The translations under genes were made by a program, and so were the position numbers. A stretch of DNA of 64,000 nt, from NCBI GenBank assembly GCA_050117845.1, contig JASFLY010000008.1:18108-82107 (forward strand), written 5' to 3'. The notes below the pieces were generated by a model. That model worked only from the letters and a program-made list of their open reading frames with translations, was not told the DNA's origin and made no database searches. This document shows, one piece after another, positions 8,717-64,000 of the stretch. The DNA is from Candidatus Zixiibacteriota bacterium (GTDB lineage: Bacteria > RBG-13-66-14 > B26-G2 > WVWN01). Within the stretch, counting starts at the first letter, position 1, and each line of letters starts with the position of its first letter.

Positions 8717-10234
8717 ATGCGGGCTACCGTTAAAGGGAGAGGACTGCTTCTCGTTTACGTGGCCGCCGTGCTGGCGTACGGCGGCTTCTGGTGCGCCTTC
8801 ACCTACGTCCCCACGCAGGACGGCCCCGCGCACCTCTCCTCCGCGGTGGTTTTCAACTCCCTCCTCGCCGGGGACGCCGCGTTCGCCGGCAAGTACGACC
8901 TTAACCTGACCGCCGCGCCGTACTGGACCTATCACGCCGTCATGGCGCCGCTGCTCGCGGCGTTCCGTCCCCTCGTCGCCGAGAAGATATTCCTCTTCCT
9001 CTACGTCGCGCTCTTCGCCGCCGCCGGGTGGTTCGCCACGCGGGCCGCCGCCGGAAAGGCCTCGGCGCTCGGCCTCCTGTCCCTCGTCTTCGCCACGTCC
9101 TTCCCCTTCCAGATGGGCTTCTACAATTTCATGGCGGGCGTGCCGCTCTTCCTGCTGGCGGCGTCGTATTACCGGGCGGGCCGGGAGCGGGGGGGCGGCC
9201 GGTTTTGGATTATCCTCAACCTCCTCGTCACGGCCTGTTACTTCTCGCACCTCCTGGCCTGGGGGGCCGCGGTACTCGCGATCATGGTGTTCGCCGCCTG
9301 GCCCGCCGGCCCTCGGGGCCGCGTGAAGTCGCTTTGCCGGGCCGCGCTCTACCTCGTCCCGTCGTACGTCCTGCCGGCGTACTTCCTCCTGACCGTGCCG
9401 AAGGGCGGGGACTTCGGCCGCCATTCCGTCGGGTGGCTCGTCCGGGAGCTGGCCTTCGTCCGGGCGCCGGTCTCCTTCGGCCCGTGGCAGGAAGCTATAT
9501 CGTGGGCGCTGGCGGCGACGTACGCCGTGCTACTGGTCGCGGCCGTCGTGGCCCGGCTTCGCGGCGGGAGGCCCGTATTGCGCCCGGGCGACGCGTTCGC
9601 GGCCGCGGCCCTCGTCTTCGTCGTGGCGTATTTCGCGCTCCCCGGCGAAGCGCCGCCGGGAGTGTACTACATCTCGGAGCGGATGGCGCTCTTCCCCTTC
9701 CTTCTGATAACGCCGTGGCTCGCGGCGAACCTCCCCCGCGGGTGGGGGAGGCCGGCGGCGTGGGCGGCGGTCGTCCTGGTGCTGGCCAACCTCGTGCCGC
9801 TGGGCCTCTACTACGCCCGCGAGAACGAGAAGCTGCGGATCGCGAATTCGGGATACTGCGTCGTGGCGCCGGGACGCTTTCTCTTGCCGATGATAAAGGA
9901 CCCGGTCGCGCGGGAGCGGCGGGTCGAGTCGCTCCGGCACGTGGCCGCTTATTACGTCATCGCCGCCGACGGATGCAACCTGGCGGACATGGCCGCCGCG
10001 ACGTCCTATTTCCCCATAAAATTCGCGGCCGGCGTAACGCCCGCGGCCTACGTCGGCACCTTCAGCAATCTGCGCGTCTACGACGTCGAGGGTTCCCGGC
10101 CGGTCCCCGATTACGTCATTTCGTACAACATCAATCCCTTCATCCCGGCGACACGGCCCGTCTTCGAGCACTACCGGCCGGTCCACTTCCAGGGTCGTTT
10201 AATCATATACGAACGAGGCCGGGACGGCCGGTAA
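8717..10234 (+). CDS. Polytopic membrane protein, probable GT-C-type glycosyltransferase
   Basis: TM1 followed by YVPTQDGPAHL, then PYWTYHAVMA, MGFYNF, YISER; about 10-12 TM segments plus a periplasmic tail. Confidence 0.55.
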   Translation: MRATVKGRGLLLVYVAAVLAYGGFWCAFTYVPTQDGPAHLSSAVVFNSLLAGDAAFAGKYDLNLTAAPYWTYHAVMAPLLAAFRPLVAEKIFLFLYVALFAAAGWFATRAAAGKASALGLLSLVFATSFPFQMGFYNFMAGVPLFLLAASYYRAGRERGGGRFWIILNLLVTACYFSHLLAWGAAVLAIMVFAAWPAGPRGRVKSLCRAALYLVPSYVLPAYFLLTVPKGGDFGRHSVGWLVRELAFVRAPVSFGPWQEAISWALAATYAVLLVAAVVARLRGGRPVLRPGDAFAAAALVFVVAYFALPGEAPPGVYYISERMALFPFLLITPWLAANLPRGWGRPAAWAAVVLVLANLVPLGLYYARENEKLRIANSGYCVVAPGRFLLPMIKDPVARERRVESLRHVAAYYVIAADGCNLADMAAATSYFPIKFAAGVTPAAYVGTFSNLRVYDVEGSRPVPDYVISYNINPFIPATRPVFEHYRPVHFQGRLIIYERGRDGR

Positions 10235-10295
10235 AGGCCGAAAAAAACACTCGCCATCGGGCGAGCGTTTCTTATTCCTCGTAGCGATTCGCGCC

Positions 10296-11972
10296 TTATT
10301 GTATGCCGGTCAGGTACGCGCCGTACACCGTCGCCCGGAGCTTCTGCTGGTCGACTTCGTAGACGACGACGTCCGAGCCCTCCGGCCGGAAGGCCTCCTT
10401 GAACGCGCCCGCCCCGTAGTCTATCCTGACGATGGTAAGTTCGCCTTCCTGCGAATCCATCGGGACCTTCGTCAGGTTCCGGTAACCCCGATACCATATC
10501 GCCCGCAATCCCGGCCGCCGGGCCAGCGCCGCCGGTTCCAGCACGACGTAGCGAACGTCGTAGTCCGTGAGTATGGCCTGAATCTCGCGGATCCCGCCGT
10601 TAGGCCAGTAGAGCGAAGGCCGGTCGTAGTCGTAGAGGAGGTTGATGACGCCGGGCCAGGTTACGACCGCGTCGTCCGCTTCGGTATGTTCGGCGAGCCA
10701 GGCCGCGACTTCGCGCCGCTCCTCGTACGCCGCCCGGTCGTCCTGGGTCAACGTTTGGGCGAAGGGCCTGACCAACGGGATTAGGAGGAATACCACCAGC
10801 GCGGCCGTGGCCCAGAAACGGCCTCGACGGAAGAGCTCCGGGAGGCGCGTCAGGCCGGCGAATCCGAGCGGTATCAATAATAAATAAAAGGGTACGAAGT
10901 AACGGAACAGGCCGAAACCGAAAACGGAAAACGCCAGAAGGTGCGCGAGCAGGGCGATAACCGGGAACGCGAGCGCCCGGCGCCGCCGCAGTATCGGGAC
11001 GGCCACGACCGCCAGAAGGGCGAACGCGACCAGCGGCGCGGCCCGGTAAGGCTCGCTCAGGTGGAGATTTCCGAGGAAGAGGGTCTCCACGCCCCGCCAT
11101 AACCCTCGGCCTATGCGGCCCACGAAGTCGAAGAACCCGTACGACGCGAAGTACCCCGACCAGGTCGGCACGTAACGCTTAATGGCGAATACCTGCTCCG
11201 GCGAGGGCGCGACGACGAACAGTTTCACCCGAGAGTAGAACGGGTCGCCGAACGCGGAGATATTGCGTATCCACCACGGCAGAGAGGCCACGCCGAACGC
11301 CCCGAGCGAAACGCCGGCGGGCGCGAGGCCCCGGCCCCGGTAGACGATGAGGAGCGCCGCCACGTACGCGACGAGCAGAAGAACGCCGTTCAGCCGGCAA
11401 AGGTAAGAAAGGCTTAAAAGAACGCCGACTAAAAGCGGTCTAAGAAGTGTGGGCCGGTCCCGTTCGAAGTCCCCGGCCACGGCGAGCGCGGCGAAGAAAA
11501 GCAGCGCGAAATACGCCTCCGGCATTACCCGTACGGAGAACCAGAGGAACGAGGGTTCGAGCGCCGCCACCGCGGCGCCGGCCAGTGCGATGCCGGGGCC
11601 GAACCAGCGTTTGGCCAACAGGTAAAGGAGGAATAACGCCGCCAGCGACGCCAGCACCGTAACGACGCGTACCGGCGTGGGCGAATCCGCGCCGGCGGAG
11701 AAGGCCGCCGCCGCCACGAGAGGCAAGAGCGGCTGGCGATTGCCCTCGGGATGGACCACGGGGCCCCGTTCGCCGTAGAAATCCCACTTGGCGTAGGTGG
11801 TGTAGCCTCGCCCCTCGGCGAGGTTGTGGCCGACCTCGAGGATATTGCCGGCGTCCGCGTCCGGCAGGGAGTTGTGAACGAAGCACCAGATCCTGGGCGC
11901 CAGGGCGAGCACTAGTATCAATATTAATAATACCGCCTCGGCGCTGCGCGATATCTTGACGTTTGCCATCAT
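10296..11972 (-). CDS. GT39/ArnT-like membrane glycosyltransferase
   Basis: PDADAGNILEVGHNLAEGRGY, HPEGNRQPLLPL, SVRVMPEAYF, YLCRLNG, PWWIRNISAFGDP. Confidence 0.75.
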   Translation of the reverse strand: MMANVKISRSAEAVLLILILVLALAPRIWCFVHNSLPDADAGNILEVGHNLAEGRGYTTYAKWDFYGERGPVVHPEGNRQPLLPLVAAAAFSAGADSPTPVRVVTVLASLAALFLLYLLAKRWFGPGIALAGAAVAALEPSFLWFSVRVMPEAYFALLFFAALAVAGDFERDRPTLLRPLLVGVLLSLSYLCRLNGVLLLVAYVAALLIVYRGRGLAPAGVSLGAFGVASLPWWIRNISAFGDPFYSRVKLFVVAPSPEQVFAIKRYVPTWSGYFASYGFFDFVGRIGRGLWRGVETLFLGNLHLSEPYRAAPLVAFALLAVVAVPILRRRRALAFPVIALLAHLLAFSVFGFGLFRYFVPFYLLLIPLGFAGLTRLPELFRRGRFWATAALVVFLLIPLVRPFAQTLTQDDRAAYEERREVAAWLAEHTEADDAVVTWPGVINLLYDYDRPSLYWPNGGIREIQAILTDYDVRYVVLEPAALARRPGLRAIWYRGYRNLTKVPMDSQEGELTIVRIDYGAGAFKEAFRPEGSDVVVYEVDQQKLRATVYGAYLTGIQ

Positions 11973-29663: not shown

Positions 29664-30647
29664 ATGGGAACGGATAAAATACGACGTTTGTTGCTTGCGG
29701 CCGCGGCCGGGGCGTTGTTGGCGTCCGCCGCCGCGGCGTCATCTTACAATTACGAAGGAAAATGGCAGGAGTATTTGGGAGTGGCCGATTGGGAATTCGA
29801 GATAGGACCCATTTCCGGGGATGATTCCAAGGTAGCGGTGCCTTATATTTGCGCGTCGAGTATCGCGGCGATAGATGTTGGATGCAGGTTATTCGACGCG
29901 AACGGTGCCTATCTCGGTTATTGTAAATATTTTTTAAGCTCGTACGATCATTACGAAAACGGCGGGATTTACGGGTGCGCTGCGGTAGGCGAAGGCGCGG
30001 TAACGACCTTCACCGTGCATTATTACGATTTGAGCGAGGAAATATATAAAACCGAAAGCCATTTATCGTACGGTCCGAACCCAAGTTGGGATATTAAGGA
30101 GGACGGGTGGGGCCGCTTCAAAGCCCTGGCGCGGACTCCCGACGGCCAGAGTTTCTATTGCTACCGGTTATATTCCGGCGATTACAGGATATGTAAAATG
30201 ACGGTCGCCGGGACCGTAACGAGTTATTTCACGCCTTTGGCCGTGCCGGACGATATGGCGGTGGACGCCTCGGGTAATATATATGGTTTATCGGGGGGGT
30301 GGGTATTTAAATACGACGCTAGCGGTTCTTTAATAACGTCGTGGGATACTCCGGTCACGCTTAACGACGTATGCGTCGACGCTAACGACCGGATATTGGG
30401 TTTCTCGAATAGTAATATGTACACGTACGTCTTTAGCGACGCGGGTTCCCTCTTGGGCAGCTTCACCGCGCCGTACGAGTCTATCACAAGGCACGGCAGT
30501 ACCGGTCCGGACGGGAAATATTTCGTCGCATGTGAAGCCTGGGATCAGGAGATTTTTATATGTTTCGTTGAGATGTACCGGTTCGCCCCCGTTCCGACCA
30601 ACATCGTCCCTACTAGTTTGGGTAAAATAAAGGCCATGTACCAGTAA
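29664..30647 (+). CDS. Secreted beta-propeller-like (NHL-like) protein with conserved C-terminal tail motif
   Basis: Signal peptide ...LLASAAAA; PDDMAVDASGNIY repeats; ends NIVPTSLGKIKAMYQ. Confidence 0.8.
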   Translation: MGTDKIRRLLLAAAAGALLASAAAASSYNYEGKWQEYLGVADWEFEIGPISGDDSKVAVPYICASSIAAIDVGCRLFDANGAYLGYCKYFLSSYDHYENGGIYGCAAVGEGAVTTFTVHYYDLSEEIYKTESHLSYGPNPSWDIKEDGWGRFKALARTPDGQSFYCYRLYSGDYRICKMTVAGTVTSYFTPLAVPDDMAVDASGNIYGLSGGWVFKYDASGSLITSWDTPVTLNDVCVDANDRILGFSNSNMYTYVFSDAGSLLGSFTAPYESITRHGSTGPDGKYFVACEAWDQEIFICFVEMYRFAPVPTNIVPTSLGKIKAMYQ

Positions 30648-44629: not shown

Positions 44630-45292
44630 TTAGAAGTAAAGCGCTTTTACGCGGCCGATGCTCGAAGGAGAGACAGCCGGGTTGTTCTCGTTGTCCATTA
44701 CGACGCGCATCATGATGTTGTAGTAACCCGTGCTGTTCGAGTTCGGGGACCAGGTGCCACCGTAGTAAACCCACGAGTGGTTGAGGAAGGTCGGGTTGTT
44801 GTCGACGACGTGCGGGTCGCAGTTCGGGTAGTTGTAGTACTGCTCCATGGCCGGCACGAAAGCCTTGAGGCCGGAGGGGAGTATCCAACCGACGGGGATT
44901 TCTTTCCAACCGTTCGAACCGGTCGGTACGTACCATTCGGGGCCCCAGAGCATCGAACCCGGGACGCCGCCGGAGAAGGAGTATACGCCGACACGGAAGC
45001 CGTCCCATACGCCGTTCGGCCAGCTGGGATAGCAGTACAAACGGATCGTGCGGATGTACGGGTAGCTCTTGACGGTGCTAATGTTGAAATCGTTACCGAC
45101 ATACGTCCCGGCACCGGTGTACCAGGCGATACCGTAGGAACTCGAGCCCGAATCCCAGGACAACTCTACCGTAGCGTCGTTCGCGGGTTCGTTATTCGAG
45201 AACTCGGGGGGGGCTTTATCGACGGCCATGTCAGCCGCCCAGGCACCGGCTACTAAAGCTAACAGGCCGGCAAACAAAGCAAAATTCTTCAT
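44630..45292 (-). CDS. Secreted beta-rich hypothetical protein with conserved C-terminal tail motif
   Basis: MKNFALFAGLLALVAGAWA signal peptide; ends AVSPSSIGRVKALYF; AGGAGG SD. Confidence 0.85.
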   Translation of the reverse strand: MKNFALFAGLLALVAGAWAADMAVDKAPPEFSNNEPANDATVELSWDSGSSSYGIAWYTGAGTYVGNDFNISTVKSYPYIRTIRLYCYPSWPNGVWDGFRVGVYSFSGGVPGSMLWGPEWYVPTGSNGWKEIPVGWILPSGLKAFVPAMEQYYNYPNCDPHVVDNNPTFLNHSWVYYGGTWSPNSNSTGYYNIMMRVVMDNENNPAVSPSSIGRVKALYF

Positions 45293-45505
45293 TGGCAAAG
45301 ACCTCCTAATTTATCTTCCGCCGGCTCAGGGGCCAGCAACGATTTGGAAAATTTCCCCCGGCGGTGCACGCCGAGGCTCCTAAAGTAATATTTAACATTG
45401 TAGACGCCTAAATGTCAAGGGAAAAATGGGAGAAGGCGCTTTTTTCGCCGTTCATACCTTGATAATACCTCGCCTGAAAGGCGATTCGCCCGTCCCGGAG
45501 GAGCC

Positions 45506-55166: not shown

Positions 55167-57662
55167 ATGGAAGAATACTTCTCGAATCGCGCCCAGGAGG
55201 CCGTACGCTCCGCGCAGGAGACGGCCAAGGCCCTGGGCGCCGGCCAGATTGGAACCGACCACCTCCTCGTCGGCATCGCCCGCGACCGCGGCTCCATCGC
55301 CGCCCGGGCCCTCGGCGCCGTCGGCCTCGACTTCGACCGCCTGACCGCCGCCGTCCAGCAGCTCGCGCCGTCAAGGCCGGGAGCGGAGCCGGGCGCCGTC
55401 ATCGAGTTCGCCCCCGACGCCAAGCGCGCCATCCAGCACGCCGTGGACGAGGCCCAGCGCCTCAAGGCCCAGCTCGTCGGGACCGAACACCTGCTGCTGG
55501 GCGTCCTGCACGAGACCGCCGGGGCGGGTGTCAAGGTCCTCGTCTCCTCCGGCGCGGACCCGAAGGTCGTCGCCGACAAGTGCTACGAACTCATGGGCGC
55601 GACGCCTTCCGGCGCGTTCGGCGCCGACGCCGACTCCAAGACGCCGGCGCTCGACGCCTTCGGCCGGGACCTGACCGCGCTCGCCCGCGACGGCAAGCTC
55701 GACCCCGTCATAGGCCGGGACAAGGAGATAGAGCGCTGCATCCAGATCCTCTCCCGCCGCACCAAGAACAACCCCGTCCTCATCGGCGACCCGGGCGTGG
55801 GGAAGACCGCCATCGTCGAGGGCCTGGCCCAGGCCATAGCCGGCCGCCAGGTCCCCGAGATCCTGGTGGATAAAAAAGTAATCCAGCTCGACCTCGCCGG
55901 CCTCGTGGCCGGAACGAAGTTCCGCGGCGAGTTCGAGGAACGCCTGAAGAGCGTCGTCGACGAGATAATCGCCGGCGGCGACGTCATACTCTTCATCGAC
56001 GAGATGCACACCCTCGTCGGCGCGGGGGCGGCCGAGGGCGCCATCGACGCCGCCAACATCCTCAAGCCGGCGCTGGCCCGGGGCGAGCTCCAGGCCGTGG
56101 GGGCGACCACCCTCGACGAGTACCGCAAGTACGTCGAGAAGGACGCCGCGCTCGAGCGCCGCTTCCAGCCCGTCATCGTCGACGAGCCGTCGGTAGATGA
56201 GACCATCGCCATCCTGGAGGGCCTGCGGGACCGCTACGCCGCCCACCATCACGTGACCATTTCGGACGAGGCGCTGGCCGCGGCGGCCCGCCTCTCCGCC
56301 CGCTACATCGCCGACCGCTTCCTCCCCGACAAGGCCATAGACCTCATCGACGAGGCCTCGGCCAAGGTCCACCTGGCGAATCTCACCATCCCGCCGGACC
56401 TCGCCGCCACGCAGGCCGAGGTCGACCGCCTCAACCGGGAGAAGGAGGAGGCCATCGCCCGCAACGACTTCGAGGCCGCGAACCAGGCCCACGTCAAGGC
56501 GCTGGAACTACAGGCCAAGCTGGACGGCGCCCGGGCGGAGTGGGAACGCGTCAAGGCCGAGAAGCAGGAAGAGGCGGTCGTAACGCGGGAGCACGTGGCC
56601 GAGGTCCTCTCCAGCTGGACGGGGATACCCGTGTCCGAGCTGACCGAGGAGGAACAGGCGCGGCTCCTTCGGATGGAGGATGAACTGCACCGCCGCCTCG
56701 TCGATCAGGAGGAGGCCGTACGGACGGTGTCGCAGGCGGTGCGGAGCGCCCGGGCGGGGCTAAAAGACCCCAACCAGCCGGTGGGGACCTTCATCTTCCT
56801 GGGACCCACGGGCGTGGGCAAGACCGAACTCGCGAAAGCGCTGGCCGAGTTCCTCTACGGCGACGAGGAAGCCATCATCCGCATCGACATGTCGGAGTAC
56901 CAGGAACGCCACACGGTCTCGCGGCTCGTCGGCGCGCCGCCGGGGTACGTCGGCTACGAGGAGGGCGGCCAGTTAACGGAGCGCGTGCGGCGGCGTCCCT
57001 ACTCCGTTATATTGTTGGATGAAATAGAAAAGGCTCACCCCGACGTCTTCAACATCCTGCTGCAGGTGATGGACGACGGCCGCCTGACCGACAGCCACGG
57101 CAAGACGGTGGACTTCAAGAACGCCCTGCTCATCATGACCTCCAACGTCGGCGCCGACCGGATAATGAAGCTCTCGGAGCGGGCCCAAGTGGACAAGGAA
57201 GCGGCCCTCTACGAGAAGATGAAGGAGGAGGTCTTCGAGGAGGTCAAGGCGGTATTCCGGCCCGAGTTTATAAACCGCGTCGACGACGTCATCGTCTTCC
57301 ACGCGCTGAGCCGCGAGGACCTGGTGCAGATAGTAGACCTGTTGGTGGCCAAGGTGCGGCGCCGGCTGGCCGACCAGGAGATGGACCTGGAGGTCTCGCC
57401 GGAGGCCCGGGAGCACCTGGCCGAGGAGGGTTACGACCCGGCCTTCGGCGCCAGGCCGCTGCGCCGCCTCATAACCCGCGTGCTGGCCAACCCCATCGCC
57501 AACCGCATCCTCAACCGCGACTTCGGCCCGGGCGACACCATCGAGGTAGGCTTCAAGGACGGCGAGCTAACGTTAAATAAAAGTAAAACGAAGAAGGCCA
57601 AGGTAGATACTAAGAAGGAAGCGGACGGAGAGGAAGTCATCGAGGGCGAAGTGGTGGACTGA
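55167..57662 (+). CDS. clpC: ClpC-type AAA+ chaperone
   Basis: Two Clp_N repeats, GDPGVGKT, short UVR-like middle domain, [26 protein letters not shown]. Confidence 0.9.
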
Positions 57663-57698
57663 GGTAGTCCGCCGGATAATCCGAAGGGGGTACGAACG

Positions 57699-58289
57699 AT
57701 GCGTATAGTAATCGCGGTAGCGGCGGCGTGGGCCGTCGCGGTAGGCGTGGGGACGGCCAAGGATTTCGTGAACGAGGATTTCGAAGGGACGTTTCCCCCG
57801 CCGGGGTGGACCACTTTCTACGAGGGCACCGGCGACGCCAGTTGGTCGCTCGCTTACGGCGGGCCGGGGGGCCGGTACGCCCTCGGGGGGACCTCCAGTT
57901 GGGAGCAAGGGTTGGTCCGGGCCACGTTCATGTCTCCCGAATTCGAAGTCAAGGCCAACACGCGCGTCTATTACCGGTTCGATTACGACCACCACGAGAA
58001 CGGCCACAGCGGCGGCGGGGCCGATTTTTATATTACGTACGTCCAACCGTCCCAGGGCAACCTGGTTTACGTGCCGCTGGAGTCGACGTCCGATTGGGAG
58101 GAGCGCAGCGGAGACCTCAAAAACGACCTCAACGCGACCGCGAAGGCCTGCTGGCGGGTATGGACGACCAATTACTGGCGCTACCATTTCTCCTTCCTCA
58201 TGGTCGACGGCGTGATTATCTCGGACGACGCGCGCTACCCGGGCGTGGAGCCGAATTCGCTGGGCCGGGTCAAGGCGCTGTTCCGGTAG
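57699..58289 (+). CDS. Secreted beta-sandwich protein with conserved C-terminal tail motif
   Basis: Signal peptide; FVNEDFEGTFPPPGW; ends GVEPNSLGRVKALFR. Confidence 0.85.
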   Translation: MRIVIAVAAAWAVAVGVGTAKDFVNEDFEGTFPPPGWTTFYEGTGDASWSLAYGGPGGRYALGGTSSWEQGLVRATFMSPEFEVKANTRVYYRFDYDHHENGHSGGGADFYITYVQPSQGNLVYVPLESTSDWEERSGDLKNDLNATAKACWRVWTTNYWRYHFSFLMVDGVIISDDARYPGVEPNSLGRVKALFR

Positions 58290-58373
58290 GGAGAAGTCCG
58301 AAAGAAGAGGAAGCAATCCGCCCGGGGGGCCGCGGCGGGAGGTTAAACGTAACGAAATCGAAGGGGGAACGAG

Positions 58374-58946
58374 ATGAGGCGGGGAAAAGTATTAACGGCG
58401 ATCGTGGCGTCGGCGCTGGCGGCGGGTGCCGCCTCGGCTACGACGTACCTGGACGAGGACTTCCACGCGAACCAGATGCCGACCGGATGGTCGGCCAAGA
58501 CGAGCGGAAGCGGATCCGTCGCTTACGGGTTTATCTACGAGGAATATACGGCGTCAGTTCTGGTAAACGACGGGCAAGCCGGTACGGTGGAGTTAACGTC
58601 GTTCGAGATGACGGTGCCCGCGGGCACTTTGTATTACTCGTTCGAATACTACTCGTACGCCATGGGCTCGGGCACTATCCGGGGGGAGTTCGCCGCGGAA
58701 TACGCGGGGACCTCGACCGAAATCTACCGCGACTCGTTGTCCGGCGGCAGCCGGCACGTCGAGGCCGGGTCGTTTTACGTCGCCGAGCCGGGGACGATAG
58801 TAGTGGTCTGGGTATACCGCGGCGGCGCGGCTCCGGGGCGGTACGCGGAAGGCGAGATGTTCATGGATGACGCCGTCATAACGGACGTGCCGAACGCGGG
58901 CGTGGACCCCAGCTCGCTCGGCCGCGTCCGGGCGCTGTTCCGGTAA
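58374..58946 (+). CDS. Secreted beta-sandwich protein (distant paralog of the upstream gene) with conserved C-terminal tail motif
   Basis: Signal peptide; YLDEDFHANQMPTGW; ends GVDPSSLGRVRALFR. Confidence 0.85.
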   Translation: MRRGKVLTAIVASALAAGAASATTYLDEDFHANQMPTGWSAKTSGSGSVAYGFIYEEYTASVLVNDGQAGTVELTSFEMTVPAGTLYYSFEYYSYAMGSGTIRGEFAAEYAGTSTEIYRDSLSGGSRHVEAGSFYVAEPGTIVVVWVYRGGAAPGRYAEGEMFMDDAVITDVPNAGVDPSSLGRVRALFR

Positions 58947-58995
58947 GCGGTGGCCGAAAGCACTTTCATTAATCCCGGGTTCCAAGGAGGAATCA

Positions 58996-59649
58996 ATGGC
59001 CGACTACGACACGGAGCAGGTGCATAAGGACACCATCGAGTATTATCGGCTGACGCTGGCCCAGCACGAGAAGGACCCCCACGCCGTCGAGACGGCGAAG
59101 GCCGACCGGGCCGTCCTCGAGATGGTCCGCGAGACCCCCGGCGTCGTCGAGATGAACAGCAAGATGATGGAAGGGGGCCTCGCGTTCGCCGTCGCTCGGG
59201 CGATGTCGGTGGACGGCGCCAACTTCCAGGCCGACGTATACGAGGAACTCGAGGAGGGGCCGTTGGCCGAACGCTGGCGCGCTCGCGCCGGGGCCCTGGC
59301 GGCCTCCGGCGACATGAACGAGCTCTACGCTATCTCCGAGAAGATGGACGCGGAGGAAGCCCCGACCAAGGAGAACGAGAGCCGGGCCAAATCGCTCATC
59401 CCGACGATTATCGAGAAGCTGCTTTTGGTGGAGGCGAGCCCGCCCGGCACCGGCCTCGACGAGCAGCCGATGACGACGCTCACGGCCTCGCTCGACGAAC
59501 TGGCCCAGCGGTTCCCCGGCGTTCGCTTCCCGGACGCGCTCGACCTGCCGCGCTTCCGTACCCGGCTGGTCTATTCCGATGGGCAGATTAAAAGGCTGGT
59601 CGAGCTGTTCGAGAAAGTCAATGCCGAACGGCTGGGGGGGCGGTACTAA
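58996..59649 (+). CDS. Helical hypothetical protein
   Basis: AAGGAGG SD; GC3-biased codons; TAATG overlap with the next gene. Confidence 0.75.
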   Translation: MADYDTEQVHKDTIEYYRLTLAQHEKDPHAVETAKADRAVLEMVRETPGVVEMNSKMMEGGLAFAVARAMSVDGANFQADVYEELEEGPLAERWRARAGALAASGDMNELYAISEKMDAEEAPTKENESRAKSLIPTIIEKLLLVEASPPGTGLDEQPMTTLTASLDELAQRFPGVRFPDALDLPRFRTRLVYSDGQIKRLVELFEKVNAERLGGRY

Positions 59650-61154
59650 TGGATCCGGGCGTGAAGCAGATGATCGACGGCCTCAAGATGGGAGTGGACG
59701 CCCAGTCCTCGATGGTCAGCGACAAAAGTAGGTTGGACGACGTTCGGGCCGTAATAGGCCGGATGGAAGAGGTCGCCGCCGAGCCGGGCATGGATATGAT
59801 GAAGTTCCAGGAGCGCATAAACGCCGAGGGCCTGATGGATAAATACGGCCAGGCCATGGCCGCCCTCAGCGAGGTACAGGTCGCGGCGATGGACCAGAAG
59901 ATAGAGGAGATGGAGGATTACGCCGCGGAAGCGAAGCCGATCGACCTCGAGACGCTGGACATCACCGATATCGAAATCGTCCTCGGCCCCCACCGCCAGG
60001 TATACAACACGACCGTGAAGGACAACGATACGCTGCCGCACCAGAAGGCCGCGTACGAGGCGTTCTTCGCGCTGGGGAAAGAGTGCGCGACCATTCCCGA
60101 GTTCAACCGCCGGTCCAAGGCCGAGGGCTACCAGGACCAGCTGGGCCTCGCCGGCGTCTGGGACGGCAATTACAACACCTTCCGGCTGGAGGTGACGCAC
60201 AAACAGCCGGACATGATAACGTACGGCCTGGACGCGCTCACCGCCGTCGGCGATTACCCTTCCCCGGAAATGCTGGCCTACGCGCTCAACCGCCTCGCTC
60301 TTCTCAACGAGCGGACCCTCGCGCGGCGGGCCAGTCTCTTCGAACCGTTCAACGGCTTCGGCGGCGAATTGTCGTCGTACCTCATCCTCGTACATACGGA
60401 GGAGCAGCGGCAGAAGGTCGTCAACATGTACGGCCTGCAGGAGGAGTTCACCGGCCTCGATTTCGACGCGGCGACGTACCATCCCTACTTCCGCCAACTC
60501 CTGGTGCTGGACGACGCCCGCCAGCGCGGCGAGCTGGGCCCCGACTACCTGGGCGTCATCCCCTTCCTCCGGGCCGGCTGGTTCACCGACGCCTGCCTCT
60601 CGCCCGAGGAGAAGAAGGCCTTCGCGGATAAGAAAGAGATCCCTCGGCCTCCCGCCCTCCGCTACCCGTATCGCACCGGGCCGGTGGGCGGCGTCAACGT
60701 GACGCTGGCGGAACCGCCGTTCGCGAACCCCTTCGACTCGCCCTTCCCGGCCCGCGTGACCATAACGAACAAGGCCGCCGAGGGCCGGCCCCTGGATACG
60801 ACCAAGGGCCTGCGCATGTGGGTCTTCACCGAGGACGGCGCCGAGGCAAAGAAGGTGCCGGTGGAGCTGCCGGCCGAACTCGCGCCGGGGGCCTCGGAGA
60901 CGGTCGAGGGCGACCTCTTCGCGTGGGGCCTGCCGCAGGAGGAGAAGCTGTTCATGGTGGCCTTCGACGTCGGCGTAGAGGGCAACCACAAGTGCGACCT
61001 GGCCGAGAAGTACGGCAATCCGGAGGGCCTTACGCCGCCGATGATTCCGGACTTCTTTTTGGAGCCTTTCGAAGGCGGCGCCGCGACCGAACCGGCCTTC
61101 GTAATGCCGCACCGGCCCGTCCCGGCGTACCCGTTCCCGATGCCGATAGAGTAG
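59649..61154 (+). CDS. Hypothetical protein (helical repeats plus C-terminal Ig-like region)
   Basis: 501-aa ORF with GC3 bias, translationally coupled to the upstream gene. Confidence 0.8.
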   Translation: MDPGVKQMIDGLKMGVDAQSSMVSDKSRLDDVRAVIGRMEEVAAEPGMDMMKFQERINAEGLMDKYGQAMAALSEVQVAAMDQKIEEMEDYAAEAKPIDLETLDITDIEIVLGPHRQVYNTTVKDNDTLPHQKAAYEAFFALGKECATIPEFNRRSKAEGYQDQLGLAGVWDGNYNTFRLEVTHKQPDMITYGLDALTAVGDYPSPEMLAYALNRLALLNERTLARRASLFEPFNGFGGELSSYLILVHTEEQRQKVVNMYGLQEEFTGLDFDAATYHPYFRQLLVLDDARQRGELGPDYLGVIPFLRAGWFTDACLSPEEKKAFADKKEIPRPPALRYPYRTGPVGGVNVTLAEPPFANPFDSPFPARVTITNKAAEGRPLDTTKGLRMWVFTEDGAEAKKVPVELPAELAPGASETVEGDLFAWGLPQEEKLFMVAFDVGVEGNHKCDLAEKYGNPEGLTPPMIPDFFLEPFEGGAATEPAFVMPHRPVPAYPFPMPIE

Positions 61155-61219: not shown

Positions 61220-61775
61220 GGGAAATAGAATCGTCCGCTTCCGGTAAAAAAGCCGCCCCGACGGGGGCGGCTTTAATAAAACCGAGTTAATCCACGTTAA
61301 TTTAACGAGGCCGACGTTAGTAGCGGTGAATAAGGGAGGTTCGCGTTACGAAGTATCTATTAATGGGATTACCTATCGCACTTATCGCTGTACTGATATC
61401 CTCTTGTGATGGGCCCACTTACGTTTACGCACGGCCCAGTATCCAAAGCGTTAGCGAAAACGGAGGAACCATCGAGGTCAGTTGGGAAGCGTTTAACACG
61501 GTACAATCTATTAAACGATATAGTTGGTGCGAACTTAAAGGAGGATGGGATTTCGATTTCGAAGACGCCGTTAAAAGCAGCATGTACTACGTAGACGATT
61601 CTAATTTAGTGCCCGGTACGACGTACGGGTATACCGTCTACGACGGGATTGAAGAATCGGGATTGAGGAGTATTAATTACAGAGGACCGAGGGCCGTTAA
61701 GGATGACACCAACCAAGGGAAATAGAATCGTCCGCTTCCGGTAAAAAAGCCGCCCCGACGGGGGCGGCTTTAATA
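61220..61775 (+). repeat. 59-bp perfect direct repeat (61220-61278 and 61717-61775) containing a stop codon and terminator hairpin
   Basis: GGGAAATAGAATCGTCCGCTTCCGGTAAAAAAGCCGCCCCGACGGGGGCGGCTTTAATA occurs twice. Confidence 0.9.
61348..61725 (+). CDS. Small AT-rich lipoprotein (Fn3-like beta-rich); start probably ACG 61348 (ORF track ATG 61363)
   Basis: (M)KYLLMGLPIALIAVLISSC lipobox; GGGAGG SD 8 nt before ACG. Confidence 0.7.
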   Translation, partial: TKYLLMGLPIALIAVLISSCDGPTYVYARPSIQSVSENGGTIEVSWEAFNTVQSIKRYSWCELKGGWDFDFEDAVKSSMYYVDDSNLVPGTTYGYTVYDGIEESGLRSINYRGPRAVKDDTNQGK

Positions 61776-61848
61776 TTGGGACAGGGCGGCGTTAGAAGCA
61801 AAACCGCCCCCTCGCGGGGGCGGTTTACGCTAAAGAGGTGATCGTGTA

Positions 61849-62601
61849 TTATCGGAACAGCGCCTTGACGCGGCCCACGGACGAGGGCGTTACGCCCACG
61901 CCTTCCTCTAGCATCGTCGACCGGGCTTGCTTTACTTCCTTCCCGGTCTGGTCCTGAACGAAGACCGAGACGCCGAGGTTGGCTGCGTTCCAGGTCGGGT
62001 CCAGCGCGAAAGTTGTTCCGATTTCCTCGGTCTCGTTGGCGGACGAGACCGTCACGTCCTTGGTTGCGAAGCGCCGCTCGACAAAGCGATAATGGCCGCC
62101 TACCTGGTCCTCCCATAATACGAAGTGGCAGACGTGGCCTGCGGCCAGGGCTTCCTCGAGGGTAAGCTTAACCATTACCGAGGCCTTGTTATCGCCGTAG
62201 CTCTTGTGGACGAACTCTATCGTCAGCGGACTGGCGGCGAAACGCCGGATGTTGAATGAACTCATGTACCAGGTGTACATTTCGTCGTTGTTGGTGTACG
62301 CGCCGCGGTGCGACAAGACGCCGTCGAACCAGGTCCAGGGATATGCGTTCACGCCGTAATAACCGGCGCGTGCCTGGGCTTCCGGCGTTACGTACAAACT
62401 CCCGCCCCTGCTATACCAGGATACGGGAGCGAACTTATCGGGGCCCTGCTCGTCGTAGATCCTACCCATCGCGTATTCTGCGAAGGGACAGTAGCCTCAA
62501 TTCGTGCCCGTGAAGAACTCGGCCACGACGCCCCGTTCGGCGGCCAACGTCGGCAGCGATGCCAGCAAGAGGAGTGCGATAATCCCAAACGTCTTTTTCA
62601 T
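61849..62601 (-). CDS. Secreted Omp28-like thioredoxin-fold selenoprotein (UGYC; in-frame TGA 62497-62499) with C-terminal tail motif
   Basis: ATG 62601 after AAGGAG: MKKTFGIIALLLLASLPTLAAERGVVAEFFTGTN*GYCPFAEYAMGRIYDEQGP; the TGA aligns with Cys of the paralog's TWCGYCP; ends GVTPSSVGRVKALFR. Confidence 0.85.
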
Positions 62602-62646
62602 CGTTCGGCTCCTTCGTTTGAGTAATTACTACCGTTTCTCTTATAT

Positions 62647-62676
62647 ATAATAAACTGTTTTAACTCCCGAAGTCAA
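62647..62676 (-). promoter_or_regulatory. Sigma70 promoter for the selenoprotein gene (a second candidate, TTGTCG-N17-TATAAT, lies at 62780-62808)
   Basis: TTGACT-N18-TATTAT on the minus strand. Confidence 0.6.
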
Positions 62677-62862
62677 GCGCAATCGGCCCGTGCGGCGGCC
62701 GTCCCTCCACCGTCGCCGCTACCGAGGTAAGGGGCCGGATACGGCGCAGGTAGCGCCTCGACGTCCAAATTCCGGATATATTATAACCGAAATAGTCATT
62801 GACGACAAGTTGTGGGCGATGTAAATGATTTAAAGGGACTTCGCGGTTCTGCTCGAGCCGGT

Positions 62863-62940
62863 AAAAGAGAGGGCCGCCCAAAAGGACGGCTCTCTCGGTT
62901 TAGGGAGGGAGGGTTCTCGGTCGGGCTAATCTCCTCCTTG
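62863..62940 (-). ncRNA. Candidate ~80-nt small RNA (own promoter and terminator, no ORF)
   Basis: TTGACT-N17-TAATAT (62974-62946), short transcript, then GAGAGAGCCGTCC-TTTT-GGGCGGCCCTCTC-TTTT terminator. Confidence 0.45.
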
Positions 62941-63025
62941 CTTATATATTATCAAATTGGTCATATAAAGTCAAGGAAAAAAGCGCGATCCCGAGTTATA
63001 TTCTTAAACCCCGTTTCCCGAAAGG

Positions 63026-63050
63026 AAACCGCCCCCAAAGGGGCGGTTTC
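63026..63050 (-). terminator. Intrinsic terminator for the 63076-63840 gene
   Basis: GAAACCGCCCC-CAAA-GGGGCGGTTTC hairpin. Confidence 0.6.
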
Positions 63051-63075
63051 CATAACGGAGGAGACTCGATCAATC

Positions 63076-63840
63076 TTAACGGAAAAGGGTCTTTACTTTA
63101 CCGAGGGACGTCGGCACGACGCTGACGCCCTCCTCGAGCATTTTGGCCCGGGCCTGTTTTATCTCTTTAGTCGTCGGGTCCTGGACGAATACCGAGATGC
63201 CGAGGTCCGCCGTCTTCCAGGCGCCGTCGAGCGTGAACGTTACGCCGATTTCCTCGGACTCGTTGGCGGCGCTTACCGTGACGTCCTTCGTTTCGAGTTT
63301 ACGGGATACGAAACGATAATCATGGCCGCCGTAGGACAGGTTGTCTTCCCATAGTACGAAGTGGCAGGCGTGGCCCGCGGCCAGGGCTTCCTCGAGGGTC
63401 AGGTTAACCATGACCGAGGCCTTACCCTCGCCGTAACTGAAGTGGACGAACTCGATGGTGAGGGGGCTGGCGGCGGCCCGCCGGATGTTGAACGAACTCA
63501 TGTACCAGGTGTACATCTCCTCGTTACTCGTGTACGCGCCGCGGTGAGAAATGCTGCCGTCGCACCAGGCCCACGGGTAAGCGGTAACACCATAATAACC
63601 CTTCCGCGCCTCAGCATCGACCGTATACCACATTCCGCTCGAGGAGGCGTGCCAGGCTACGGGGGCCCACTTGTCGGGGCCCTGTTCGTCGTATATGCGG
63701 TTCAAAGCGTAGTTCGCGTACGGACAGTATCCGCACCAGGTAGCGGTGAACAGTTCCATTGCGACGCCGCGTTCCGCGGCGTAAAGCGCCGGGGCGCTGA
63801 GGGCCAGCGCCACGAGGATAAAAATAACTTTCCGCGCCAT
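63076..63840 (-). CDS. Secreted Omp28-like thioredoxin-fold protein (CGYC) with C-terminal tail motif
   Basis: Signal peptide; MELFTATWCGYCP; HFVLWEDN..YRFVSR; ends SVVPTSLGKVKTLFR. Confidence 0.88.
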   Translation of the reverse strand: MARKVIFILVALALSAPALYAAERGVAMELFTATWCGYCPYANYALNRIYDEQGPDKWAPVAWHASSSGMWYTVDAEARKGYYGVTAYPWAWCDGSISHRGAYTSNEEMYTWYMSSFNIRRAAASPLTIEFVHFSYGEGKASVMVNLTLEEALAAGHACHFVLWEDNLSYGGHDYRFVSRKLETKDVTVSAANESEEIGVTFTLDGAWKTADLGISVFVQDPTTKEIKQARAKMLEEGVSVVPTSLGKVKTLFR

Positions 63841-64000
63841 TACGGCTCCTTTCGTAATTCATTACGGGAGCTTGGCGCGGCGGCAAGGCCGGCTCGCGGG
63901 CCGGCGTCATTCTCTAATGATCAACGCCCACGCGCCAACTCCTAAGGGGTCCGGGTACCGTCGTCGTACGAGTCCGTACGATTGTCCGCGGTGCCGTACC

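Follow-up and report, generated by a model that had tools for sequence, protein, structure and literature searches.

Selenoproteins of the GOS_C type were predicted in 2008 by Zhang and Gladyshev from Global Ocean Sampling reads (PMC2398784). A 2026 review of prokaryotic selenoproteomes lists the corresponding family, NF045500, as "Hypothetical protein GOS_C" with the motif UxxC, U being selenocysteine (Sec) (PMC13188914, Table 1). Here we describe a gene at positions 61849-62601, minus strand, of a 64,000-nucleotide (nt) stretch of Candidatus Zixiibacteriota DNA (assembly GCA_050117845.1, contig JASFLY010000008.1, positions 18,108 to 82,107; hereafter the window, numbered from its first letter). 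This gene, referred to below as the target, is a genuine, mis-annotated selenoprotein gene and a distant, sub-threshold relative of GOS_C/NF045500, not a new kind of selenoprotein. An earlier reading of the DNA letters (the sequence-only reading) had proposed a Sec-decoding TGA at the redox site of the encoded protein. Judged from the conservation of the TGA, a Sec/Cys pair and a covarying hairpin, that proposal appears to have been right in substance.

The target matched the NCBIfam model NF045500 ("Omp28-related selenoprotein") with an E value of 1.3e-19 and 70.8 bits over profile positions 38-268. When it was compared by BLASTP with a GOS_C read (JCVI_READ_1092961114687), the two were 33% identical over 86 residues (E = 4e-9), and U fell on U (FTGLN-U-PYCP in the read, FTGTN-U-GYCP in the target). 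Both proteins look secreted, have a thioredoxin-like fold and carry a UxxC whose Sec occupies the same column of the alignment (FTGxN-U-xYCP), and in both genes a hairpin resembling a bacterial Sec insertion sequence (SECIS) lies just downstream of the UGA. The target is shorter, with 250 amino acids (aa) against a profile of 377 positions, and ends in a PxSxGRVKALF tail. Its clade comes from Coatesbacteria-like metagenome-assembled genomes (MAGs) of wetland, sediment and groundwater, whereas GOS_C comes from the surface ocean. In the target clade, Cys forms are far rarer than Sec forms, and CxxU variants occur as well; GOS_C comprised 74 Sec and 312 Cys forms.

The best structural match was HBP35 of Porphyromonas gingivalis (PDB 5y1a; Foldseek E = 9e-12, template modelling scores 0.64/0.53). 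HBP35 is attached to the cell surface, contains one thioredoxin motif and has measured thioredoxin activity (PMC2907840). Like the target, it is of the exported type, with an N-terminal thioredoxin-like domain that bears a CxxC and is followed by a beta-sandwich. Unlike the target, to which it is 16% identical, it uses Cys and not Sec, binds hemin and ends in a C-terminal domain of the type IX secretion system (T9SS) of about 80 residues, as opposed to a 14-residue tail. The domain that marks T9SS cargo (Por_Secre_tail or TIGR04183 type) was not found in the target with NCBIfam or Pfam. A T9SS is hinted at by other proteins, encoded at two related loci (L039 and L040), through a faint Por_Secre_tail match and a Peptidase_C25.

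The second structural match was DUF1223 (PF06764; PDB 2axo, Agrobacterium AGR_C_4864; E = 3.7e-10), which likewise combines a thioredoxin-like domain with a beta-sandwich but consists of Cys proteins of unknown function. DUF1223 was also matched weakly by the Cys paralog that lies beside the target and by a third tandem copy (13.2 bits, gathering score 30.7). All Pfam matches of the target itself were below threshold: Omp28 (PF11551) at E = 2.9e-4 over residues 186-230 and Thioredoxin_3 at E = 0.022. The sequence-only reading had spoken of an Omp28-like oxidoreductase. A remote similarity does exist, including one to the Omp28 lipoprotein model NF033782 (E = 3.6e-6), but the scores fall short of membership (21.2 against 34.9 bits for PF11551, 26.4 against 150 bits for NF033782), and the signal peptide of the target lacks a lipobox Cys. 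With Sec-containing thioredoxins, DsbA-like proteins and thiol:disulfide interchange selenoproteins the target shares UxxC, Sec in the attacking (N-terminal) position and a SECIS within the coding region; it differs from them in having no significant match to their Pfam families and in its additional beta-sandwich and tail. We found no literature linking Omp28 with selenoproteins or Coatesbacteria with Sec.

The open reading frame (ORF) lister split the target into a 34-aa ORF (62497..62601, minus strand; MKKTFGIIALLLLASLPTLAAERGVVAEFFTGTN) and a 206-aa ORF (61849..62469, minus strand). The two are in the same frame and are separated solely by the TGA at 62499-62497, which is followed by GYCPFAEYAMGRIY. 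The list thus bears out the observation that a start at ATG 62469 leaves out the active site as well as the signal peptide. Translation from ATG 62601, which is preceded by the Shine-Dalgarno (SD) sequence AAGGAG, passes through MKKTFGIIALLLLASLPTLAAERGVVAEFFTGTN, the TGA at codon 35 and GYCPFAEYAMGRIYDEQ and continues to a TAA. It yields, as had been stated, a signal peptide and then EFFTGTN-TGA-GYCP, and the stretch of protein that spans the Sec would read GVVAEFFTGTN-U-GYCPFAEYAMGR. The Cys paralog at 63076-63840 reads ELFTATWCGYCPYANYAL around its motif, and in our alignment A1 the TGA of FFTGTN-TGA-GYCP falls on the first Cys of WCGYCP, where the sequence-only reading had put it.

A wetland metatranscriptome contig was 100% identical to the window over 62015-62261, so the target gene is transcribed in situ. 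The Logan assembly of the source sequencing run (X1), made independently, was identical across the TGA site. An error of sequencing or assembly at the TGA might be suspected in a metagenome assembly with a depth of only ~9x. Given the identical Logan contig and the presence of the same codon in dozens of unrelated assemblies, we regard such an error as extremely improbable.

We evaluated the conservation of the TGA at the levels of protein and DNA. A search of 5.8 billion proteins returned 38 relatives, 34 of which were 181-209 aa long and started just after the CxxC position, like the truncated call in the window. The truncated records are P0003, P0005-P0007 and P0009-P0038; locus JSU81_01875 of CP070633.1 (L002/L039), a hypothetical protein, is also truncated. 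The fragments upstream, of 33-48 aa, are called as separate tiny genes in public records. Only four relatives, the paralog in the window being one, were full length with CGYC. DNA of the homologs was then collected with tblastn from 185,579 species genomes and from JGI metagenomes. Within the CxxC, every locus that covered the N-terminal region had one in-frame TGA; these loci make up 29 distinct contexts including the window. In 27 of these genes the TGA replaces the first Cys (U-x-x-C) and in two the second (C-P-Y-U; L004 and L024). The flanks of tandem arrays added nine distinct genes, for a total of 38 (36 UxxC and two CxxU).

The TGA homologs were 32-62% identical to the target in protein sequence, contained no further in-frame stop and were conserved over their full length. 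The protein sequence upstream of the TGA, with its signal peptide and RGVVAELFTxT strand, is kept, in agreement with the claim that conservation and reading frame extend to either side of the TGA. Carriers include the complete 2.35-Mb chromosome of Candidatus Coatesbacteria (CP070633.1), which has at least three of these genes, MAGs labelled Zixiibacteriota, other MAGs and metagenomes. The presence of the TGA in all 38 distinct homologous genes is more than chance. Three Cys forms were found (P0002, P0004 and P0008, all CGYC). Since Cys-containing homologs exist, the family forms a Sec/Cys pair.

These data bear on the possibility that the target is a nonsense pseudogene, in which a recent mutation of TGC or TGT to TGA inactivated one duplicate while the Cys paralog carries the function. 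The paralog does lie 475 nt upstream of the target, and TGA is one mutation away from either codon. The sequence-only reading had tied this possibility to a TGA unique among orthologs that all have Cys. Instead, the same codon is TGA in the 38 divergent, full-length genes, in many genomes the TGA form is present in two or three tandem copies and a Cys copy is absent, and the target gene is transcribed. The comparative sequence data appear to leave a pseudogene with next to no likelihood, and we consider this explanation effectively refuted.

The homologs also speak to the start at ATG 62469. The residue at which gene callers begin is M, L or F across homologs, which argues that the downstream Met is not a conserved initiator. 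Two separate products, a secreted peptide of 34 residues and a cytoplasmic protein of 206 residues, would agree with the existence of this ATG and with public annotations, which call the gene in this way. However, the residue is Phe (TTC) in L003, L005, L022 and L023 and variable in other groups, there is no SD-like purine run before 62469, and this ATG is part of the 3' arm in the hairpin described below. The Cys forms have the fold in full, and the 206-residue form would be missing its strand 1, its active site and the signal peptide. We therefore find two products very unlikely.

The hairpin that follows the UGA (Table 1) contains one U-U mismatch in its stem. The sequence-only reading had placed a stem-loop 17 nt after the TGA. 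Its hairpin, its fold and the G as the second loop base were recovered when the region was folded (-9.5 kcal/mol), but 17 nt is the distance to the apical loop, and the stem begins at 9 nt. A possible extension of the lower stem spans 62461-62491 (-12.6 kcal/mol). The bacterial SECIS (bSECIS) model specifies a loop of 3-9 nt, an upper stem of 4-16 bp, a G in loop position 1 or 2, a distance of 16-37 nt from UGA to loop and a minimum free energy of <= -7.5 kcal/mol (PMC13188914). The target hairpin lies within all of these constraints, with a loop of 7 nt, a stem of 4 bp + 3 bp, G second, 17 nt and -9.5 kcal/mol. Its loop has G-A and not the commoner G-G/U.

RNAalifold applied to 13 orthologs independently recovered the same helix. 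Covariation was scored in codon register across 22 distinct sequences that represent three paralog types; 93.9% of their cells pair in the hairpin. Compensatory changes were found in three of the six pairs: 15:33 (CG 11, GC 7, UG 2, AU 1), 17:31 (GC 10, AU 8, UA 1) and 18:30 (CG 12, GC 10). The covariation score was 0.49 as opposed to 0.15 +/- 0.035 in shuffles, none of 500 of which reached 0.49, and slid registers scored <= 0.10. In pair 15:33, one partner is the synonymous third base of a Pro codon, whereas a change at the other partner, five codons on, alters the residue; the covariation of this pair is not predicted by protein constraint alone. With the comparative sequence data taken in, the predicted hairpin exceeds chance.

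In the CxxU genes, the UGA lies three codons further on than in the UxxC genes. These genes have a distinct and stronger 8-bp hairpin (CGGCGAUC-AGGAC/AGGAA-GAUCGCCG, -13.2 kcal/mol), which starts 13 nt after the shifted UGA. Thus, the structure travels with the codon. Sec at the second position (W-C-P-Y-U-P-P) was seen at L004 1144, L024 1612 and L020 788.

Several results weigh against Sec insertion in the target. The hairpin on its own is no better than chance (z = -0.62 in its 76-nt context), and an equally long perfect stem occurs in 48% of equally wide segments of the same GC-rich gene; we dropped these single-sequence statistics as evidence and used covariation instead. The Cys ortholog P0008 keeps the hairpin (-10.9 kcal/mol), whereas P0002 and P0004 have lost it (-2.6 kcal/mol). 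Part of the conservation of the hairpin could therefore stem from coding constraint, and loss of the hairpin from Cys forms, true of two and not of the third, was abandoned as a rule and offers weak support. The distant L007-type subgroup has only a 3-bp stem in register, RNAalifold prefers a different, weak fold there, and no convincing common hairpin was found in that subgroup. No Rfam SECIS family matched at the gathering score or at E values up to 5. The NF045500 cut-off of 200 bits was not reached by the target or by five other members of its clade (43-73 bits). No Sec machinery was seen in the window: its only tRNA is tRNA-Ala, and none of the 20 larger ORFs scanned with Pfam is SelA, SelB or SelD. 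The fetched homolog loci contained only Thr, Tyr and Gly tRNAs. Apart from these points, a motif scan of the window for further selenoprotein genes with an in-frame TGA returned only out-of-frame noise and adjacent genes.

In bacteria, tRNA-Trp and tRNA-Cys can read through UGA at a low level. As no Sec machinery was seen in the window, the UGA might instead be read as another amino acid, through a lineage-wide reassignment to Trp or Gly or through near-cognate read-through that inserts Trp or Cys. A reassignment conflicts with the use of TGA at the end of 18 of the 53 window ORFs of >=350 aa and of the homologs L028 and L035, which makes it an ordinary stop codon in this organism. Moreover, the in-frame TGA is confined to the redox Cys position, its shift in the CxxU variants is accompanied by a new hairpin, the hairpin covaries at a distance appropriate for SelB, and the related NF045500 is curated as a selenoprotein. 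We judge a non-Sec reading of the UGA to be very unlikely.

We consider it very probable that the target encodes an exported selenoprotein of 250 residues, the UGA of which is recoded by SelB and tRNA-Sec with the help of the downstream hairpin. What is demonstrated is the conservation of the in-frame TGA and of the hairpin, the covariation within the latter at a spacing that suits SelB, a Sec/Cys pair, a thioredoxin-like fold, a signal peptide by sequence and transcription in situ. Translation would start at ATG 62601, and the UGA at 62499-62497 would be read by SelB with Sec-tRNA(Sec), directed by the hairpin 9-31 nt 3' of the UGA. Export of the pre-protein would follow through the Sec translocon, with cleavage behind LAA. 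Once mature, the protein would most likely act as an extracytoplasmic selenol/thiol-disulfide oxidoreductase, in which U35 attacks and C38 resolves, and the short C-terminal tail probably directs it to the envelope or the surface of the cell.

The fold was assessed on an AlphaFold2 (AF2) model of the Cys paralog, which stands in for the target at 68% identity. The model had a mean predicted local distance difference test score of 84.5 and a predicted template modelling score of 0.82; residues 1-20, the region of the signal peptide, were disordered, and the tail was of low confidence. In the model, strand 26-32 is followed by CGYC at 36-39 and a helix at 39-53, and the remainder is predicted to form an all-beta sandwich. 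The CxxC thus stands at the start of the first helix after strand 1 of a beta-alpha-beta core, the arrangement of thioredoxin-fold thiol-disulfide oxidoreductases. An invariant Pro precedes strand 90-93 and is presumably in the cis conformation. The predicted signal peptide, thioredoxin-like fold and shared C-terminal tail agree with the exported-type, thioredoxin-fold protein with a tail that the sequence-only reading had described. A profile search of the PDB by sequence gave no match; comparison of folds alone worked.

Among 1.84 billion cluster representatives, a profile search returned 1780 relatives at E <= 0.001 but only 14 at <= 1e-30, which places the close relatives in a small clade inside a large, mostly multidomain superfamily. 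Many distant hits have the domain begin at residue 1-10 of the called protein. In many multidomain relatives of ~600-800 aa (such as P0062, P0067, P0091, P0098, P0102 and P0108), the homologous domain begins at residue 2-10, and the CxxC region is missing. This pattern suggests that the wider superfamily may hold further selenoprotein calls truncated at TGA. A near-invariant G-H-x-C-H motif (AGHVCHFVLWED) lies in the beta-sandwich of the main clade, in the target at ~62120-62140 on the minus strand (residues G155, H156, C158 and H159 in alignment A1). The L007-type subgroup has no Cys in this motif (GHFIH). By analogy with HBP35, one might speculate that the motif binds metal or heme.

Table 1. 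Features of the selenoprotein gene and its surroundings (window coordinates)
Feature	Position	Strand	Basis
Complete selenoprotein gene	61849..62601	-	250 codons including Sec35; stop TAA 61849-61851; length matches Cys paralog and orthologs
Shine-Dalgarno AAGGAG	62609..62614	-	7 nt 5' of ATG 62601; read from sequence
In-frame TGA, codon 35, read as Sec	62497..62499	-	Conserved in homologs; also in independent Logan contig, run X1
Signal peptide MKKTFGIIALLLLASLPTLAA, A-x-A-type cleavage site before ERG	62539..62601	-	Read from sequence; same pattern in all orthologs
Redox motif U-G-Y-C (CxxC of thioredoxin fold)	62488..62499	-	Alignment A1 and AF2 model of paralog
Thioredoxin-like domain, ~residues 22-122	62236..62538	-	AF2 model of 68%-identical paralog; Foldseek 5y1a, 2axo
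Beta-sandwich domain, ~residues 123-232	61906..62235	-	Alignment, AF2 model of paralog, Foldseek
SECIS-like hairpin CCCUUCGC/AGAAUAC/GCGAUGGG	62465..62487	-	Folding, -9.5 kcal/mol excised; RNAalifold; covariation
C-terminal tail VTPSSVGRVKALFR	61852..61893	-	Recurs in five further window proteins with signal peptides
Sigma-70-like promoter TTGACT-18-TATTAT, upstream of gene	62647..62676	-	10/12 consensus matches; putative function
Terminator-like hairpin CCGCCCCC-GCGA-GGGGGCGG then TTTT, 3' of stop	61800..61823	-	Read from sequence
Tandem Cys paralog (CGYC), 68% identical to target, without hairpin	63076..63840	-	Equivalent RNA -2.6 kcal/mol, z = +0.4

The tail of the target recurs in the window, with six proteins ending in it: 29664-30647 (plus strand), 44630-45298 (minus), 57699-58289 (plus), 58374-58946 (plus), 61849-62601 (minus) and 63076-63840 (minus). 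The shared pattern is [VI]-x-P-[TSN]-S-[LIV]-G-[RK]-[VI]-[KR]-A-[LM]-[FY]-x-stop. The four tail proteins other than the target and its paralog had no Pfam or NCBIfam match. Scan patterns that included the tail motif matched 364 genome and >600 metagenome stretches, most of which do not encode relatives of the target. From its sequence, the tail would seem to be a C-terminal sorting signal of this lineage, so far undescribed.

Same-strand tandem arrays of two or three paralogs, with a TGA in each motif, were found in L001, L006, L019, L020, L002, L003 and L026. In the three-copy arrays, the TGAs are at 1539, 2367 and 3519 in L001; 421, 1253 and 2153 in L006; 776, 1603 and 2766 in L019; and 788, 1603 and 2806 in L020. 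L040 contains another such array at 9000-11790, where the gene calls consist of three split pairs (48+172, 34+209 and 33+165 aa). The array lies directly downstream of a tRNA-Thr/Tyr/Gly cluster in L001, L003, L004 and L005. In the array of the window, the middle copy has turned into a Cys form. The third tandem paralog, of 251 aa and with the weak DUF1223 match, lies upstream of the Cys paralog, just beyond window position 64000, and was found on a contig of JGI sample 3300042731 (gene 744-1499).

The spacer of 474 nt between the paralogs (62602-63075, minus strand) contains sigma-70-like promoters at 62974-62946, 62808-62780 and 62676-62647 and a site resembling an intrinsic terminator at 62890-62873. 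Five promoter-like sites were counted in 61600-64000, as opposed to 1.0 +/- 0.9 expected. Together with the terminator, the first of these spacer promoters could bound a short transcript of ~80 nt; the spacer had no Rfam match. The consensus scan for terminators did not list the hairpin 3' of the target (61800-61823) among its sites. Beside the selenoprotein array, the window (55167-61154, plus strand) is syntenic with L040 (13454-18912, minus strand). The shared order is a ClpC/ClpB-type ATPase, a tail protein of ~193 aa and two proteins of 217 and 501 aa without a Pfam family. In the window, the coding regions 58996-59649 (stop included) and 59649-61154 abut with one shared base.

The target gene opens no new category of biology. 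Of specialist interest are the predominance of Sec, the tandem Sec arrays, the switch from UxxC to CxxU with a relocated SECIS and the shared tail. In about 90% of the clade's database entries, truncation at the TGA has removed both signal peptide and active site, and the curated NCBIfam model is too narrow to recover such entries. How a SECIS within a coding region co-evolves with the encoded protein can be followed in a natural dataset, made up of the UxxC and CxxU variants and the Sec/Cys tandem paralogs. The finding implies that Coatesbacteria-like bacteria decode Sec and spend it on several exported thioredoxin-fold proteins per genome. We propose, tentatively and with somewhat more doubt than confidence, that these proteins form a distinct, almost always Sec-dependent subfamily and not a fringe of GOS_C, characterized by tandem arrays of two or three Sec paralogs, a UxxC-to-CxxU transition with a new SECIS and a hitherto undescribed short C-terminal surface-sorting tag (PxSxGRVKALF) present on many unrelated exported proteins of the lineage. 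If so, the subfamily would furnish the cells of an uncultured phylum with a surface redox layer that depends on selenium.

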